DNA from: Alphaproteobacteria bacterium
GTDB taxonomy: Bacteria > Pseudomonadota > Alphaproteobacteria > JAAXGF01
NCBI GenBank assembly: GCA_963555825.3
Contig: CAUVXB020000001.1
Coordinates: 2,144,001-2,208,000 of the forward strand
Direction: 5' to 3'
DNA: 64,000 nucleotides
Below are positions 54,146-59,588 of the stretch, piece by piece. The notes under the pieces are model-generated. The model was given only the letters and a program-made list of their open reading frames with translations. It made no database searches and was not told where the DNA came from. Made by a program: the position numbers and the translations under genes. Within the stretch, counting starts at the first letter, position 1. Each line of letters starts with the position of its first letter.

Positions 54146-55690
54146 ATGAAACGCATGACGCGAATTGGCGTTGCCGCCGCGGTCGCGACGCTATTGGTCG
54201 TCGCCGGCATCGCCCGCCTGGCCGATCGGCCGGCGCCCGTCGCCGACCCGCCCGTCGGCGGCTACGCCGAGGCGCCGTGCTGGTTCGACGTCGACCTCGA
54301 TCGCACGGTCGTCTGCGGCGCGTTCGTGATCCCGGAGAACTGGGATGTTGACGGTTCACGCACACAGCGCCTTTCCATCGTCACCTTCAAGGCGGCGCGC
54401 GGTTCGGGCGCGGCGGCGCCCATCCTGTTCCTCAACGGCGGACCGGGCGACCGGGTGCGCACCCGCACCGACAACGAGGTCCGCGATTGGGCCGATTGGC
54501 TCAAGCGCGAGACCTGGACCCATGAGCGTGACTTCATCGTACTGGCCCAGCGCGGCACCAACTGGACCGACGCCAACCTCGCCTGCGCCGAGCTCGGCGA
54601 CCCTCGGCTGTACGCCGGTGTATCGGAACAGCCGGGCGCCGAGACCGATTGGCGCACCGACACCAAACGAGCGTACGAGGCATGCCGCGACGGACTCGTC
54701 GCCGCCGGCCACGATCTGGCGGCCTACAGCACATACCAGGGCGCCAAGGACGTCGCCGGGCTCAGACACGCCATGGGCGTCGACGGCTGGGTGCTCTACG
54801 GCGTCTCCTATGGCACGCGCCTGGCGCTCACGGTGATGCGCGATCATCCGCGGGGCATCGACGCCGCCGTGCTGGATTCGGTCTGGCCGCCCGAAGTCGG
54901 GGTCGGCGCCGACGACTCCGCCGCCTTCATGGCGACGCTGACCAAGATCGCCGAGGCCTGCCGGGCCGACGCGGTCTGTAACGGTCGTTATCCCGACGTC
55001 GTCGGCGCGTTCGTCTCGTCGATCGAACGCCTGCGCCGCGCGCCCGTCGAGATCTCCGTCCCGGGCACCGGCGGCGCCAAGTCGCTGTACGTTCTCTACG
55101 ACCCCACCTTGTTCGTCGACACGCTGTATTTCGCGATGTACTGGTGGGATACGGTGAAGACGATACCGAAGGCGGTCGACGGCTTCGCGCGGTCGGATTT
55201 CGACGCCTTCGTCGGACTCGCGCGCGATTACATCGACGACCCGCAATACGAGGCCTTCGCCCACGGCACGGCCACCGCGATCAACTGCAACGACAACCTG
55301 GCGGTCGATGCCGCCGTCGACTGGGACGCGCAGGTGGCGGCGTATCCGTTTCTGCGTGAATGGATAGACGACTTCAACGACGACACGTTCTGCGACGACT
55401 GGGCGCTCGACGTCGCGCGCCGCGGCACGGCGGCACCCACCGTGAGCGATATTCCGACGCTGCTGCTCGCCGGCGGGCTCGACGTCGCGACGCCGGCCGA
55501 ATACGCGCGCATGACCGCCGCCCGACTGTCGGCGTCCCATCTGTTCGTCTTCCCGGCGACGAGCCACGACGTCATCGACAGCCACCAATGCGCCAGCGAC
55601 TTGGTCGCCGCGTTCCTGGCCGACCCGGCCCCGCGGCCAGCGCCCGGCTGCTTCGACCCCGACGAATCGGTCCAATTCGACGACGACTGA
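54146..55690 (+). CDS. Exported alpha/beta hydrolase (tripeptidyl peptidase/TAP-like)
   Basis: NGGPG, QRG, GVSYG nucleophile, D.ATP, SH motifs. Confidence 0.88.
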
Positions 55691-55735: not shown

Positions 55736-55858
55736 TTCACGCGGAGACGCGGAGCGGTCAAGTTGGTCGAAACGCGGCTCATTCAATGCGTTAGGCCGGG
55801 GCGCGGCAGCCCCAATTCCCCCGCCGACGCGCTCCGCGTCTCCGCGTCTCCGCGTGAG
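55736..55858. repeat. (CGCGGAG)n inverted-repeat unit 1, no gene inside
   Basis: TTCACGCGGAGACGCGGAG ... CTCCGCGTCTCCGCGTCTCCGCGTGA. Confidence 0.85.
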
Positions 55859-55877
55859 TTCGGGGCACCATCTATTC

Positions 55878-55944
55878 GGTGTCAGACACCAATTTTACCT
55901 ATTATTTTCAATAATCTAACATACGAGAAATAGTGTCTGACCCC
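55878..55944. repeat. AT-rich miniature inverted-repeat element
   Basis: GGTGTCAGACACCAATTT ... AAATAGTGTCTGACCCC. Confidence 0.7.
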
Positions 55945-55989
55945 ATTAAGTTCCGGAGTTCGTTTGGGGGTGGCGGCGCGGTGGTGGGC

Positions 55990-56108
55990 TCAGATGATGG
56001 CGTGGCGCACCTTGGCCGAGACCCACTCGCTGACCACCACCGTGGCGATGATGATGAGCAGGATGACGGCGGCCGGATCGAACTCGTAGCGATCGAAGGC
56101 GGTGTTCG
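55990..56108 (-). pseudogene. C-terminal fragment of a PhnE-like ABC permease
   Basis: NTAFDRYEFDPAAVILLIIIATVVVSEWVSAKVRHAII* with no upstream gene body. Confidence 0.6.
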
Positions 56109-56144
56109 GCGTCGCGCCCTCCGGGCCGCCGCGCGCCCCAAAGC

Positions 56145-56717
56145 CTAATCGTTGCCAACGGTTCGATTCACGCGGCGGCGCGGAGACGCGGCGTAGACGA
56201 TTTGCCGGCGCAATGGGTCGCCTTCGGGCACGCGGGGATGGTCGAAATCGCGCGACGGATCACGGCTCATGCCGATGCGTTTCATGACGTTGACCGAAGA
56301 TGTGTTGGCCGTCGCGGTATAGGCGACGACTTCATCGATCCGCAGATTTGAGAAGCCATGGTCGAGCCATTTCTCGGCGGCTTCGGTGGCATAGCCGTTG
56401 CCGACGAATTGCGGATCGAGCTGCCAGCCGATTTCGAAATGCACATCATCCGAAAATGGCAAATAGTCCGGCACGGGCCGAATGCCGACGTCACCGATAA
56501 CGGCGCCGTCGGCTTTTCGCTCGACGACGGCATAGCCACAGCCTGTCTCGGTTATGGTCTCGATCTGCTTGTCGATGAAGTCGTCCGACTCGGCGGGCGT
56601 TACGACACCCGTATGATAGATCCGCGTTTGCGGGTTACCGGCGATCGTGGCGAACACGGGCCGATCTTCAGCGCGGTGGTTGCGGATGATGAGGCGCTCG
56701 GTTTCAAAGATGATCAA
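56145..56717 (-). CDS. RimJ/RimL-type GNAT acetyltransferase, inside repeat unit 2
   Basis: FETERL, EIGW, GNGYATEAA, N..S..VMKRIGM, FDHP. Confidence 0.9.
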   Translation of the reverse strand: MIIFETERLIIRNHRAEDRPVFATIAGNPQTRIYHTGVVTPAESDDFIDKQIETITETGCGYAVVERKADGAVIGDVGIRPVPDYLPFSDDVHFEIGWQLDPQFVGNGYATEAAEKWLDHGFSNLRIDEVVAYTATANTSSVNVMKRIGMSRDPSRDFDHPRVPEGDPLRRQIVYAASPRRRVNRTVGND

Positions 56718-56753
56718 TTAACCCCCCTCCGCGTCCTCCGCGCCTCCGCGTGC
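56167..56753. repeat. (CGCGGAG)n inverted-repeat unit 2 enclosing the GNAT gene
   Basis: Arms at 56167-56193 and 56727-56753. Confidence 0.85.
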
Positions 56754-56769
56754 TCATCTTGAGCCGCAC

Positions 56770-57213
56770 CTAACGACCATCACCGTTTCGATTCACGCGG
56801 AGACGCGGAGACGCGGAGGGTTCAAGATCATTAACGATCCGCTTGAGTCCCTCTTTAAGCGTCGGCGCGCCGAAATTGATCAACAATCCGACCGACAAAT
56901 TCATGAGACGCAGATAGGTCAGCACCTGCTTCGGGTGAACGGATTGAAGCCGCTCGACCGACTTGATTTCAACGACAACGCGCGACTCGACCAGCAAATC
57001 CACGCGGAGCCCGTCATCGAAATGCAGGCCGTCATAGTCGAACGATACCGGTTTCTGCCGCTCGACCAGCAAGCCGCACCGCTGCAAATCGCGCGCCAGC
57101 ACCGTCTCATAGACTGACTCCAGCAAGCCCGGCCCAAGCCCCGTGTGTAGCTTGTATGCCGCGTCGACAATCTCGCCGGTGACGTCGTCCAATGATTCCG
57201 CCGTTGTCATCAA
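56770..57213 (-). CDS. GxxExxY protein (PD-(D/E)xK nuclease fold)
   Basis: LGPGLLESVY, RVDLLVE..VVVEIKS, QVLTYL, GLLINFG. Confidence 0.93.
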   Translation of the reverse strand: MMTTAESLDDVTGEIVDAAYKLHTGLGPGLLESVYETVLARDLQRCGLLVERQKPVSFDYDGLHFDDGLRVDLLVESRVVVEIKSVERLQSVHPKQVLTYLRLMNLSVGLLINFGAPTLKEGLKRIVNDLEPSASPRLRVNRNGDGR

Positions 57214-57244
57214 TCTTCTCGGCGTCCTCCGCGCCTCCGCGTGC
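56792..57244. repeat. (CGCGGAG)n inverted-repeat unit 3 enclosing the GxxExxY gene
   Basis: Arms at 56792-56818 and 57218-57244. Confidence 0.88.
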
Positions 57245-57279
57245 CCCGTCTAGCTGTTAACTGTTACCGGCCGTTTAAG

Positions 57280-57430
57280 TCACGCGGAGACGCGGAGTGC
57301 GCGGAGAACTCGAGATCATTCACGCCCCGTGCGAAACCCGTAAGCCGCGTCAACAATCTCGCCGGCGGCGCCGTCGAAAGCCTTTACTGTCACCATTAAA
57401 CTACTCCGCGTCCTCCGCGTCTCCGCGTGC
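57280..57430 (-). mobile_element. Unit 4: internally deleted GxxExxY derivative between the same inverted repeats (MITE-like)
   Basis: Arms 57280-57306 and 57404-57430; interior encodes MVTVKAFDGAAGEIVDAAY joined to sequence matching the GxxExxY 3' end. Confidence 0.75.
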
Positions 57431-57455
57431 CCCCTATTGTTTCGCTGACGCCCGC

Positions 57456-59588
57456 CTATGGCCCGCGGCGGCGCTTCTTCGACTTGCGCTGCTGGAAGGC
57501 GCCGTGGCGGCCGCGGCCGTAGGGCTGGCCGGGCGCACCGACCTTGGCCTTGTGATGGCGCGGCACGACGCCGAGCTCGATCGCCTCGAGGCGCTGGATC
57601 TCGTCGCGCAGCCGGGCGGCCTCCTCGAACTCGAGGTCTGCGGCGGCGGCGCGCATGCGCTTGTTCAGATCGGCCAGGTGCGTCTTGAGGTTGTCGCCGA
57701 CCAGGTGAAGCACGTCGCCGGTGTCGACCGTCACGTAATCGGCCTCGGCGACCGAATGCAGGATGTCGTTGACCTGTTTGCGCACGCTCTCGGGCGTGAT
57801 GCCGTTGGCCGCGTTGAACGCCTGTTGCTTCTCGCGCCGCCGGTTGGTCTCGCCGATCGCCGCCTCCAGGCTCCGGGTCATCTTGTCGGCGTAGAGCACA
57901 ACGCGGCCGTCGATGTTGCGCGCGGCGCGGCCGATTGTCTGCACCAGCGAGGTCTGCGAGCGCAGGAAGCCCTCCTTGTCGGCGTCGAGGATGGCGACCA
58001 GCGCGCATTCCGGGATGTCGAGCCCCTCGCGCAACAGGTTGATGCCGACCAGCACGTCGAAGGCGCCGAGGCGCAGGTCGCGGATGATCTCGATACGCTC
58101 CAGGGTGTCGATGTCGGAATGCAGGTAGCGCACCCGGATGCCCGCCTCGTGCATGTACTCGGTGAGGTCCTCGGCCATGCGCTTGGTCAGCGTGGTGACC
58201 AGCACGCGTTGTCCCTTGGCGGCGCAGTCGCGGCACTCGGCCATCAGGTCGTCGACCTGGTTCTCGACCGGACGCACGATGCAGACCGGATCGATCAGCC
58301 CGGTCGGGCGGATCAGCTGCTCGGTGAAGACGCCGCCGGTGCGGCCGAGCTCCCACGGCCCCGGCGTCGCCGAGACGTAAATCGCCTGCGGCCGCATGGC
58401 GTCCCATTCCTCGAACTTCAGGGGCCGGTTGTCGATGCAGCTCGGCAGCCGGAAGCCGAAATCGGCGAGCGTCGATTTGCGGTTGAAGTCGCCGCGATAC
58501 ATGCCGCCCAGCTGGGGCACCGCGACGTGGCTCTCGTCGACGAAGATCAGCGCGTTGTCGGGCAGATACTCGATCAGTGTCGGCGGCGGCTCGCCCGGCG
58601 CGCGCCCGGTCAGGAAGCGTGAATAGTTCTCGATGCCGGCGCAGTGGCCGACCGTCTCGAGCATCTCCAGATCGAAGGTCGTGCGCTGCTCGAGCCGCTC
58701 GGCCTCCAAGAGCTTGCCGTTGTCGCGGAACCAGGCCAAACGCTCCTTGAGCTCGGCGCGGATGCCGACGATGGCCTGCTTGAGCGTCGGGCGCGGCGTC
58801 ACGTAGTGGCTGTTGGCGTAGACCTTGACCGCCTCGAGCGCCGCGGTCTTGTGGCCGGTCAGCGGGTCGAATTCGACGATCTCCTCGATCTCCTCGCCGA
58901 AGAGCGACAGCCGCCAGGCCCTGTCCTCGTAGTGCGCGGGGAATATCTCGACGACGTCGCCGCGCACCCGGAAGCAGCCGCGCGTGAAGTCCGCATCGTT
59001 GCGCCGGTACTGCAGCTCGACGAGTTGGCGCAGCAATTGCGCGCGGTCCACCTGGCCGCCGACCTTCAACTCGATGATCATCCGCGCGTAGGTCTCGGGC
59101 GAGCCGATGCCGTAGATGCACGACACCGAGGCGACGATGATGACGTTGTCGTTCTCGAGCAGCGCGCGGGTCGCCGAGTGGCGCATGCGGTCGATCTGCT
59201 CGTTGATCGAGGCGTCCTTCTCGATATAGGTGTCGGTGCGCGGCACGTAGGCCTCGGGCTGGTAGTAGTCATAATACGAGACGAAATACTCCGCCGCGTC
59301 GTCGGGGAAGAAATTCTTGAACTCGCCGTAGAGCTGGGCCGCCAGCGTCTTGTTCGGCGCCAGCACCAGCGCCGGCCGGCCGACCCGCTCGATCACCTTG
59401 GCCATGGTGTAGGTCTTGCCCGAGCCGGTGACGCCCAACAGCACCTGATCGCGCTCGCCTTGCGCCAGCCCGGCGACCAGCTCCTCGATCGCCTTCGGCT
59501 GATCCCCCGCCGGCCGGTAGTCGGAGACGAGGCGGAACGGGCCGGTTTTGGGCGGGGATGCGGGGTGCGTTGCAACTTGGCTTGGCAT
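57456..59588 (-). CDS. uvrB: Excinuclease ABC subunit B
   Basis: [32 protein letters not shown]-terminal UVR domain. Confidence 0.97.

Follow-up and report, generated by a model that had tools for sequence, protein, structure and literature searches.

A tandem array of hairpin-armed units beside uvrB as a possible local cluster of a family built around the GxxExxY nuclease gene

In an alphaproteobacterial genome, four units bounded by inverted arms adjoin the DNA-repair gene uvrB, at positions 55738-57429 of the stretch of 64,000 nucleotides that was analysed (the window). This array is confirmed to be genuine. We lean towards the explanation that it is a local cluster of a very large hairpin-armed family, whose full members enclose a PD-(D/E)xK gene of the GxxExxY type and whose arms would be spread by the action of this nuclease. 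By analogy, the best reading of the array is a repeat-and-nuclease system that may resemble REP/RAYT or the intervening sequences (IVS) of 23S rRNA, with a PD-(D/E)xK enzyme. The family is very widespread and apparently undescribed; in a literature search we found no published description of the pairing of GxxExxY with hairpin arms. It behaves like selfish DNA.

Unit 1 (55738..55857, no strand assigned) is a gene-less hairpin element, recognised by its inverted arms, its arm-pattern matches and its single-strand fold (z -4.6 and -5.0 against shuffles). Its arms (55738-55756 and 55830-55857; 18 nt, 100% complementary) enclose an interval of about 73-85 nt. Between units 1 and 2 lies the C-terminal remnant of a membrane/permease-like ORF (55990..56110, minus strand), the label "permease-like" being a reading of its hydrophobic tail without a family match. 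No full-length copy of this ORF was found in the same genome. Unit 2 (56169..56752, minus strand) has a resident GNAT acetyltransferase gene between its arms (56169-56191 and 56727-56752; 17-nt core, 94% complementary). A spacer of 41 nt (56753..56793, no strand assigned) separates it from unit 3, a full unit of 450 nt (56794..57243, minus strand) with arms at 56794-56819 and 57218-57243 (17-nt core, 94% complementary). Inside unit 3 is an intact GxxExxY ORF (56770..57213, minus strand, ATG at 57210), the final residues and stop codon of which fall in and past the 3′ arm; it is the sole GxxExxY (PF13366) gene of the genome. Unit 4 (57281..57429, minus strand; arms 57281-57306 and 57404-57429, 26 nt, 92% complementary) is an internal-deletion derivative of a unit-3-like copy. 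It aligns with unit 3 in two blocks, one comprising the 5′ arm, the start codon and about 25 codons and the other the final codons together with the 3′ arm, and its coding capacity is reduced to a 26-codon stub (57316..57396, minus strand). The upstream gene on the same strand is uvrB itself (57456..59588, minus strand), whose stop codon and the outer arm of unit 4 are 26 nt apart. The original prediction had placed all four units within 1-2 bases of these positions. It had described unit 1 as short and without a gene, unit 3 as intact and unit 4 as its internally deleted version, and on each of these points our analysis agrees, for the last two by alignment. In total, the genome has one GxxExxY gene and five arm-bounded units, four in the array and one at C2:1430129-1430262. 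The latter shows a weak hint of a start-codon remnant and was not classed as a deletion derivative.

Each arm repeats one 7-base word two or three times in phase, at a spacing of 8-9 bases. Since the two arms of a unit are inverted, the unit is able to fold into a long stem. The 17-base arm pattern (at most two mismatches) matched the window 10 times, compared with a mean of 0.59 in shuffles, and none of the 100 shuffles of the window reached 10 matches. As single strands, the five arm-bounded hairpins fold far beyond shuffles (z -3.4 to -7.7). The 41-nt spacer together with both adjoining arms forms an alternative hairpin (z -7.7). A search of the junction hairpins against Rfam returned microRNA-precursor matches only, all sub-threshold (26-33 bits; gathering score 96). 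Inspection by eye of the array units, of the units of G016 (a genome from another family of the same class) and of filled versus empty sites in Sphingomonas revealed no target-site duplications.

To our knowledge, PF13366/GxxExxY is a huge family without known function; at E <=0.001 it is matched by 17,631 clusters built at 50% identity. In a profile search the unit 3 ORF reached 132.6 bits against TIGR04256 (cut-off 35) and 129.4 bits against PF13366 (PDDEXK_3; cut-off 22), the latter being its sole Pfam match. The protein has G29, E32, Y35, D72, E82 and K84, that is, both the GxxExxY motif and the E...D...ExK set. Among 60 diverse relatives E32, D72 and K84 are invariant, G29 and Y35 are invariant or nearly so, and E82 is at least 90% conserved. 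The structure is predicted with confidence (pLDDT 92.6), and its fold resembles that of restriction endonucleases (best VIA Z 8.3; Foldseek top match Cas4, E 3e-3). By sequence, the PDB gave no match below E 0.36 and PHROGs gave none for this protein; PADLOC gave two weak PD-(D/E)xK matches (E 7e-4 and 8e-3). To judge from the residues and the model, the unit 3 enzyme looks active.

It turned out that flanking inverted repeats (score >=30) are present at 65 of the 79 scorable GxxExxY loci, in many phyla, against 1/79 in the reversed and 0/79 in the shuffled control. The tie between arms and GxxExxY genes that had been predicted from the window is borne out by these counts. Among 41 relatives the gene is patchy (5 carriers), and multi-copy arms were found in only two, both of which carry the gene. 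Five genomes picked for their arms were all gene-positive, with 1-6 GxxExxY genes and 33-113 arm matches each; the reversed pattern gave 0-1 matches in them. In G016 there are 25+26 arm matches, mainly in hairpins of 50-135 nt, and its single GxxExxY gene is flanked by the same arms. Across the 41 relatives and the five arm-picked genomes, arms did not occur independently of the gene; independent occurrence would have spoken against the prediction. Dispersed arm copies number from a few to about a hundred per genome and the gene 1-6. In other genomes the gene-less copies exceed the gene copies. We considered whether each genome has one arm word matching its gene; this holds only partly, and the words are not strictly genome-specific. 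The arm with the G-A word has 20-31 matches in four Sphingomonas genomes and is weak in a fifth, whose gene has the G-G word. The G-G-word arm has matches in all five and is nested within G-A-word arms at 8/20 loci. Four-helix-bundle (PF05635) genes have other phased words as flanks in 4/5 genomes, and 5/10 of their loci score >=30. The idea that they use GxxExxY arms was rejected because the flanking words differ.

The arms are conserved far beyond the gene that they enclose. Between unit 3 and a G016 unit each arm is identical at 25/26 positions (96%), compared with 263/391 for the ORF and 46/130 (35%) for third codon positions. For 15 loci (14 of them independent), third positions are 29-47% identical and the 3′ arm is identical at 25-26/26 positions in 11 loci. 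These alignments show that the arm sequence itself, beyond pairing alone, is kept by selection. In the same 15-locus comparison identity at codon positions ranks 2 > 1 > 3, which indicates that the GxxExxY coding sequence is under purifying selection. The exact 26-base arm was found in at least 127 stretches; these span more than 15 phyla and are for the most part hairpins without a gene. All 12 loci with the arm word of the array fall within one protein clade that mixes three phyla. Together these two observations point to horizontal spread. The polarity of the arms relative to the gene is reversed in about 7/65 loci, a pattern not expected of a simple transposon with terminal inverted repeats.

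We have shown that units are gained or lost as arm-bounded blocks. In a related strain, one contig of about 88% identity runs directly from 56754 to 57457, matching 142 letters on one side of the joint and 155 on the other and leaving out exactly units 3 and 4, arm to arm. In the fabD-fabG spacer of 56 Sphingomonas genomes, a full unit is present in 18, a remnant in 7 and another insert in 8, and the site is empty in 23. Unit presence there changes at least 17 times on the fabG tree, and well-supported sister pairs differ. Presence/absence polymorphism, proposed as a check in the original prediction, is thus seen both in the strain contig at the uvrB locus and in this spacer. We have also shown that internal deletion is a route of unit decay; the insert of one Sphingomonas genome at this site (G052) is an internal-deletion derivative with both ends kept. 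The Sphingomonas gene copy at this site diverges in step with its flanks. It looks old, vertically inherited and repeatedly lost, which fits a sedentary gene better than an autonomous transposon. At 20 dispersed hairpin loci of Sphingomonas no gene remnants were found by blastn, and tblastn found the arm-encoded tail only. Therefore, the gene-less hairpins are not all deletion products of gene units.

REP/REPIN sequences are dispersed palindromic repeats paired with RAYTs, which are HUH Y1 transposase-related enzymes (PMC5581495, PMC3479197, PMC8049555). That system is similar in that inverted, genome-dispersed palindromic repeats lie on both sides of a nuclease gene of low, often single, copy number, the gene is long-lasting at one site, and repeat sequence and protein lineage diverge jointly; target duplications, too, were not seen by eye in the GxxExxY units. 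It differs in three respects: the enzyme of the GxxExxY units is PD-(D/E)xK, whereas RAYT is HUH Y1 (IS200/IS605 TnpA-like); the arms are phased arrays of 7-base words, whereas REP is one short palindrome with a tetranucleotide tag; and the GxxExxY gene lies inside the hairpin, with only a few bases separating its start and stop from the arms. Measured by the dispersal of repeats that marks REP sequences, the window's own genome has 5 units and other genomes have 33-113 arm matches. The second comparison is with the 23S rRNA IVS of Coxiella, which is 428-444 nt long, has one ORF and a stem of 28 bp, and is cut in vitro by RNase III (PMC4990558); ORF-carrying 23S IVS (Coxiella, Leptospira) have an S23p/PF05635 ORF. 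Both kinds of element are about 430-450 nt long with a terminal stem of 26-28 bp and one small function-unassigned ORF, and both have a sporadic distribution with hints of horizontal transfer. In contrast to the 23S IVS, which sit in helix 25 or 45, unit 3 lies downstream of uvrB, outside rRNA; its ORF belongs to PF13366, a family and fold other than S23p/PF05635; and gene-less copies of GxxExxY arms are dispersed in many genomes. Rfam gave no rRNA at the uvrB array. Correia/NEMIS elements of Neisseria are bacterial miniature inverted-repeat elements, short and intergenic, with inverted ends that can form long stems. The GxxExxY units resemble them as short intergenic elements with inverted ends and some internal-deletion derivatives. 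An internal deletion that keeps both ends, as expected of a MITE, was found in unit 4 and G052 but not at the 20 dispersed hairpin loci. The units also differ from Correia/NEMIS in that neither a DDE transposase partner nor target duplication was seen, and in that many dispersed hairpins are without a gene remnant.

The mechanism that we propose is as follows. Association and arm conservation suggest that the GxxExxY nuclease reads the phased words in the arms around its own gene. It would nick or cut at the arms, on duplex, hairpin or cruciform DNA, and this cutting may be what makes arm-bounded DNA spread or keeps it spreading, as RAYT does for REP sequences. For gene-less hairpins it would act in trans. 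Recombination between directly oriented arms would have enlarged and reduced the tandem array next to uvrB. We infer the action of the nuclease on the arms from a link between protein and arms that is correlative. The family in the window's own genome is small (5 units), so activity in this host is not evident. A bolder proposal is that GxxExxY is the sole enzyme of a new class of prokaryotic mobile or self-propagating DNA, spreading arm-bounded sequence through recognition of the phased 7-base arrays on both hairpin arms, that the hairpin interior is an insertion slot for genes or hairpins, and that the ORF-carrying 23S rRNA IVS are a sister branch with another protein; we regard this as possible and put it forward tentatively. 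Should the nuclease prove to mobilise the arms, a transposition-like process would rest on an enzyme fold new to that job; we know of no case in which the PD-(D/E)xK fold alone mediates such mobilisation. The pairing ties a function-unassigned nuclease to a defined DNA partner, its own arms, and so gives a hypothesis that can be tested at the bench. It may account for a type of intergenic hairpin repeat that occurs in more than 15 phyla, and the hairpin-armed units are a possible relative of the long-puzzling ORF-carrying 23S rRNA IVS. To this the uvrB array adds a full copy and its own deletion derivative side by side in tandem, as well as strain-level, arm-bounded gain or loss.

Alternatively, the arms could act in RNA in the manner of a 23S IVS: in a host transcript that includes a unit, RNase III would cut the 26-bp stem and excise the gene from the host message, so that the insertion would cause little damage. 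The arms would then insulate the host, and the target of the nuclease would lie elsewhere. We consider this rather unlikely. The layout of unit 3 (450 nt, 26-bp stem, one small ORF) matches that of the Coxiella IVS (PMC4990558). In many relatives the 3′ arm begins 0-5 nt past the stop codon and units lie within operons, for example fabD-fabG, and no promoter-like or intrinsic-terminator-like sites were found within the arms. However, the mismatches in sense-strand arms show no G-U excess (27 G-U, 47 A-C, 62 transversion-type), arm sequence is conserved beyond pairing, both arm polarities exist, and dispersal of the arms to many sites requires a DNA-level process anyway. Cutting in RNA is also compatible with the explanation that we prefer.

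The hairpins could instead serve the cell (in mRNA stability, supercoiling or protein binding), with a domesticated, single-copy nuclease managing them and no longer selfish. The purifying selection on the coding sequence agrees with such a role, as do the exactly one GxxExxY gene in each of five Sphingomonas isolates and the one conserved site, occupied in 18/56 genomes, where gene and flanks diverge together. It is nevertheless improbable: the gene is often cleanly lost (the 23 empty sites and 7 remnants), it is patchy in relatives (5/41), its clades mix phyla, and G043 carries identical GxxExxY copies in tandem. Loss, patchiness, phylum mixing and tandem copies are more readily explained by a dispensable element that moves horizontally than by a host function.

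The original prediction had also called the GNAT gene of unit 2 a cargo. That a GNAT gene lies between the arms was correct (ORF 56145..56717, minus strand; PF13302, E 1.4e-29), but the cargo was not. One genus of the same family has uvrB, membrane protein, GNAT and DUF1538 gene in this order, without arms; the gene was thus already resident and was later bracketed by arms. Among 120 listed GNAT relatives arms occur in close relatives only, and the arm-derived tail in two, the one in the window and one at 85% identity. We therefore rejected GNAT as mobile cargo. It may have become arm-flanked by deletions that ran from neighbouring units up to its start and end, and it warns that a gene between arms is not necessarily cargo. 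An integron-like cassette array, with arms or arm-spacer-arm hairpins as recombination sites capturing genes such as GNAT, would share the tandem layout of ORF and imperfect palindrome, the gain or loss of units 3 and 4 as a block between directly oriented arms, and the common reading frame in which the GNAT and GxxExxY ORFs cross the 3′ arm before they stop, both 27 nt beyond it, yet it is very improbable, given that the sole "foreign" gene is resident at an arm-free locus of another genus, that 118/120 listed relatives have no arm-derived tail, that GxxExxY was the only family recognised from the ORF ends between arm pairs at 80 exact-arm loci, and that four-helix-bundle genes of the same genomes have other arm words.

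The four read sets mapped to the array consisted of assembled contigs. Neither circular nor excised units were seen in them, and contigs could not have revealed such forms. Short joints in run X6 (55852-57404, 56068-57453 and 56810-57404; sides of 21-40 letters) possibly come from the hairpins of other organisms and were therefore left out of the evidence. What looks like a loose end in X4 and X15, at 56752, is sequence flanking the C2 element and reflects a crossing of the assembly graph at the common arm.

Four units bounded by inverted arms lie in the window, as predicted, between an alpha/beta hydrolase gene (54146..55690, plus strand) and the convergent uvrB (57456..59588, minus strand). 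Each arm consists of two or three copies of one 7-base word, spaced 8–9 bases apart. The outer end of the arm is CAC, and the partner arm ends with GTG. A 17-base arm pattern with up to two mismatches gave 10 matches in the window when compared to a mean of 0.59 in shuffled sequences, and none of 100 shuffles reached 10. Read on the minus strand from uvrB, the array starts with unit 4 (57429-57281), a 149-nt copy with an internal deletion. It is followed by unit 3 (57243-56794), a full unit of 450 nt with an intact GxxExxY gene, and by unit 2 (56752-56169), which encloses a GNAT acetyltransferase gene. Between it and unit 1 (55857-55738), which has no gene, lie 310 nt that contain an AT-rich hairpin and the C-terminal end of a truncated membrane-protein ORF. 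The intact gene, its decay by internal deletion and the gene-less unit are all seen in the sequence, as the original prediction described them. The AT-rich 80-nt stretch (55868-55950; 47% G+C vs 65% in the genome) has a short inverted repeat at its ends and contains the sole terminator-like site of the region (55878-55890). Its right-hand 15–22 nt have about 30 copies genome-wide, which indicates a second, unrelated dispersed hairpin family. The ORF remnant (55990-56163, minus strand) is hydrophobic and permease-like, and the genome has no full-length copy of it (best other match E 0.9). It was probably cut back by a deletion adjoining unit 2.

To assess the association of GxxExxY genes with arms, we carried out an alignment-based survey of a species-representative genome collection, in which 599 of 601 candidate stretches encoded relatives; 80 loci were kept. 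To score the arms, the 200 nt around the gene start were compared without gaps with the reverse complement of the 230 nt around the gene end, and the best match was taken. Among the 79 loci with enough flank, 65 reached the threshold of 30. When the second flank was reversed but not complemented, only 1 of 79 did, and none of the 79 shuffled controls. The predicted co-occurrence of arms and genes is therefore general. All arms consist of a repeated phased word, which differs by single letters between loci; by automatic count, the five commonest six-letter cores occur 16, 12, 6, 6 and 4 times. The CAC end points outward, as in the window, at 57–58 loci, and at about 7 the GTG/CAC ends point toward the gene. 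At many loci the 3' arm starts 0–5 nt past the stop codon, and the ORFs of the clade to which the window's gene belongs run through it. Because the arms adjoin or overlap the ORF ends, the large majority of the 120 database relatives listed as closest end, as judged by eye, in the same short arm-encoded tail, and some database gene calls begin with a translated 5' arm. On the protein tree (123 columns, many forks unresolved), all 12 loci with the window's word fall into one clade of 23 (support 90), which mixes Alphaproteobacteria, Verrucomicrobiota and Gemmatimonadota; the 15 Verrucomicrobiota rows of the tree need 12 changes. The arm word tracks the protein tree and not the host. Inverted phased repeats also border the PF05635 four-helix-bundle genes of the same genomes, but these are built of other words. 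Around these genes, also named "23S rRNA IVS protein" (L290-L301, genomes G042-G045), the words are AT-richer than around GxxExxY genes, and 5 of 10 loci score at least 30 vs 0 of 10 controls. One locus (L274, G043:C1:3352734-3353961) has three identical GxxExxY units in tandem, 443 bp apart and built on another arm word; no more than about 15 nt separate the 3' arm of one unit from the 5' arm of its successor.

We compared unit 3 with the unit of G016, a genome of another family of the same class. Both arms are identical at 25 of 26 positions, and the ORF between them at 263 of 391. Only 46 of 130 third codon positions are identical, so these positions are saturated. Across 15 loci of the window gene's clade (14 independent contigs), third codon positions are 29–47% identical, and the 3' arm retains 25–26 of 26 bases in 11. 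The noncoding 5' arm retains 22–25 of 26 in 6 of the 15 loci and 16–18 in the other 9, where a one-base shift in the distance between words puts the ungapped comparison out of register. With shuffled arms, about 14 bases were identical, at most 18. Selection acts on the arm sequence itself. Since their letters are conserved beyond pairing alone, this points to recognition by a protein.

In a profile search, the unit 3 ORF exceeds the TIGR04256 and PF13366 cut-offs by a wide margin. Aligned with 59 diverse relatives, it shows invariant E32, D72, K84, G109, N113 and R125, and at least 90% conservation at E82, Q96, Y100 and Y35. The pattern is the E...D...ExK set of PD-(D/E)xK nucleases, and this catalytic set is intact. 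The family is huge, with 17,631 representative clusters matching at E ≤ 0.001, and the protein has no sequence match among solved structures. The AlphaFold model is confident (pLDDT 92.6), and its structural likeness is limited to the generic restriction-endonuclease-like fold. The top Foldseek match is Cas4 SSO0001 (E 3e-3); the top VIA-align match is 3ijm (Z 8.3), with CinB, BpuSI, Cas4 and Hjc at Z 6–8. We consider it somewhat probable that the nuclease would bind the phased words of both arms and cut there, and that cutting would sustain the spread or persistence of arm-bounded DNA. As single strands, arm-bounded stretches and arm-spacer-arm junctions form far better folds than shuffles do (z −3.4 to −7.7). 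An RNA-level, IVS-like function is compatible with cutting at the arms; as the main role of the arms it seems rather unlikely. One indirect test of it, on wobble pairing, was negative: of the arm mismatches, the sense strand could accommodate 27 as G-U pairs and the antisense strand 47, and another 62 are of the transversion type. In the non-subscription literature on the family names and on RAYT/REPIN, no published description of the pairing of GxxExxY with arm repeats was found. To this pairing, the window adds a full copy beside its own deletion derivative in one array, strain-level polymorphism and a resident gene caught between arms.

The original prediction took unit 2 for a cargo-carrying version, but GNAT as mobile cargo is rejected. 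In G005, another genus of the window's family, the uvrB end, the membrane-protein gene, GNAT and a DUF1538-type gene follow in this order on one contig without arms, and the arm-derived tail is nearly absent from the listed GNAT relatives (2 of 120, the window's own and one at 85% identity). Gene order in the window is identical, with units interspersed. In unit 2, the few bases from the 5' arm to the start codon are similar to those of unit 3, and the 5'-arm sequence joins GNAT at the second codon. The 3' arm comes after the natural GNAT C-terminus, and the 13 bases past it match those of unit 3. Apparently, two deletions from neighbouring units up to the GNAT edges would have left the gene between arms. 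The truncated neighbour ORF and units 4 and 1 show that such deletions are common here.

Using the assembled contigs of public runs, we found block-wise gain or loss at the arms between strains. In a related strain (run X15), a 309-letter contig links 56754 to 57457 with 16 other letters between; it carries 19 and 13 differences on its two sides, at a depth of 34 vs about 80. The order in this strain is uvrB, a short spacer, an arm and GNAT, without the 702 bases of units 3 and 4. Units 3 and 4 are polymorphic at the uvrB 3' locus, as anticipated. The absence spans one arm to the next in direct orientation, as expected from either recombination between two arms or an insertion at one.

The window's genome (two contigs, 6.04 Mb) has a single GxxExxY gene, that of unit 3. 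It has one further arm pair, a 134-nt element between two divergent genes (C2:1430129-1430262). Among 17 loose arm matches genome-wide, the other 5, outside arm pairs, are single sites with two mismatches. GxxExxY is present in 5 of 41 genomes of the class, and the window arm is multi-copy in only two, the window's own and G016 (25 + 26 matches), both with the gene. Most of the 32 stretches fetched from G016 are hairpins of 50–135 nt, always with the CAC arm first, and its single GxxExxY gene is enclosed by one arm pair. Many of these hairpins (L028-L059) are flanked by inverted copies of another, longer REP-like repeat, and contigs often terminate at such composite palindromic elements. The exact 26-base three-word arm occurs in at least 127 stretches of the genome collection, whose record titles name more than 15 phyla. 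Among 80 such loci fetched, a hand count gave about 55 short hairpins of 47–262 nt and 2 with a GxxExxY gene inside; in 15 no partner arm was seen within 1.5 kb or the contig end was reached, and the remainder are doubtful. Five genomes chosen for the arm alone, not a random sample, all carry GxxExxY genes (1–6 each) with 33–113 arm matches, the reversed pattern giving 0–1. Arms independent of the gene would have contradicted the prediction, and every multi-copy-arm genome examined (2 of 41 in the class, 5 arm-selected) carries it. Partnerless single arms also stand directly upstream of long ordinary ORFs, with the frame open out of the arm (L108, L118, L126, L131, L138), and resemble the 5' arm before GNAT. 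The GGAG-containing words could serve as ribosome-binding sites.

At one of the 80 GxxExxY loci of the survey, titled Sphingomonas folli, the unit lies between the fabD stop and the fabG ribosome-binding site. GxxExxY is single-copy in all five Sphingomonas isolates searched. We searched this site in 61 genomes of the genus and excluded 5 (contig ends or weak matches). The whole unit is present in 18 genomes. Seven have remnants, five read in sequence (G052, G091, G104, G083, G081) and two assigned from match coordinates only (G070, G076); that of G052 consists of the 5' arm, 13 codons and the 3' arm, a design as in unit 4. The site is empty in 23 genomes (7 read in sequence, the rest assigned from coordinates), with 10–37 nt between the genes and no footprint. 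Eight have other inserts, three of them unrelated palindromic miniature elements (L334, L335, L338 of G098, G093, G108) in the spacer that holds the unit in sister genomes. This spacer is a hot spot for hairpin elements generally. A tree of fabG (the 660 nt next to the site, 56 rows) requires at least 17 changes between unit or remnant and none, and at least 6 on its well-supported branches by themselves. Since a single gene underlies the tree, interspecies recombination could have raised this number. Unit state differs within sister pairs of 99% support, and the unit and its flanks diverge similarly (75–84% over the whole 1.8 kb). Given the many state changes and this similar divergence, the simplest reading would be an old, sedentary, often lost gene copy, which is how it resembles RAYT. 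The arm is also scattered over 20–31 places in these Sphingomonas genomes, and the 20 dispersed hairpin loci read (L406-L425; G046, G047, G049, G050) hold no gene remnant. In 8 of these 20, a hairpin of the window's word is nested just inside arms of a word different by one letter, and 2 more are interleaved. Their interiors share a common conserved core that is not derived from the gene.
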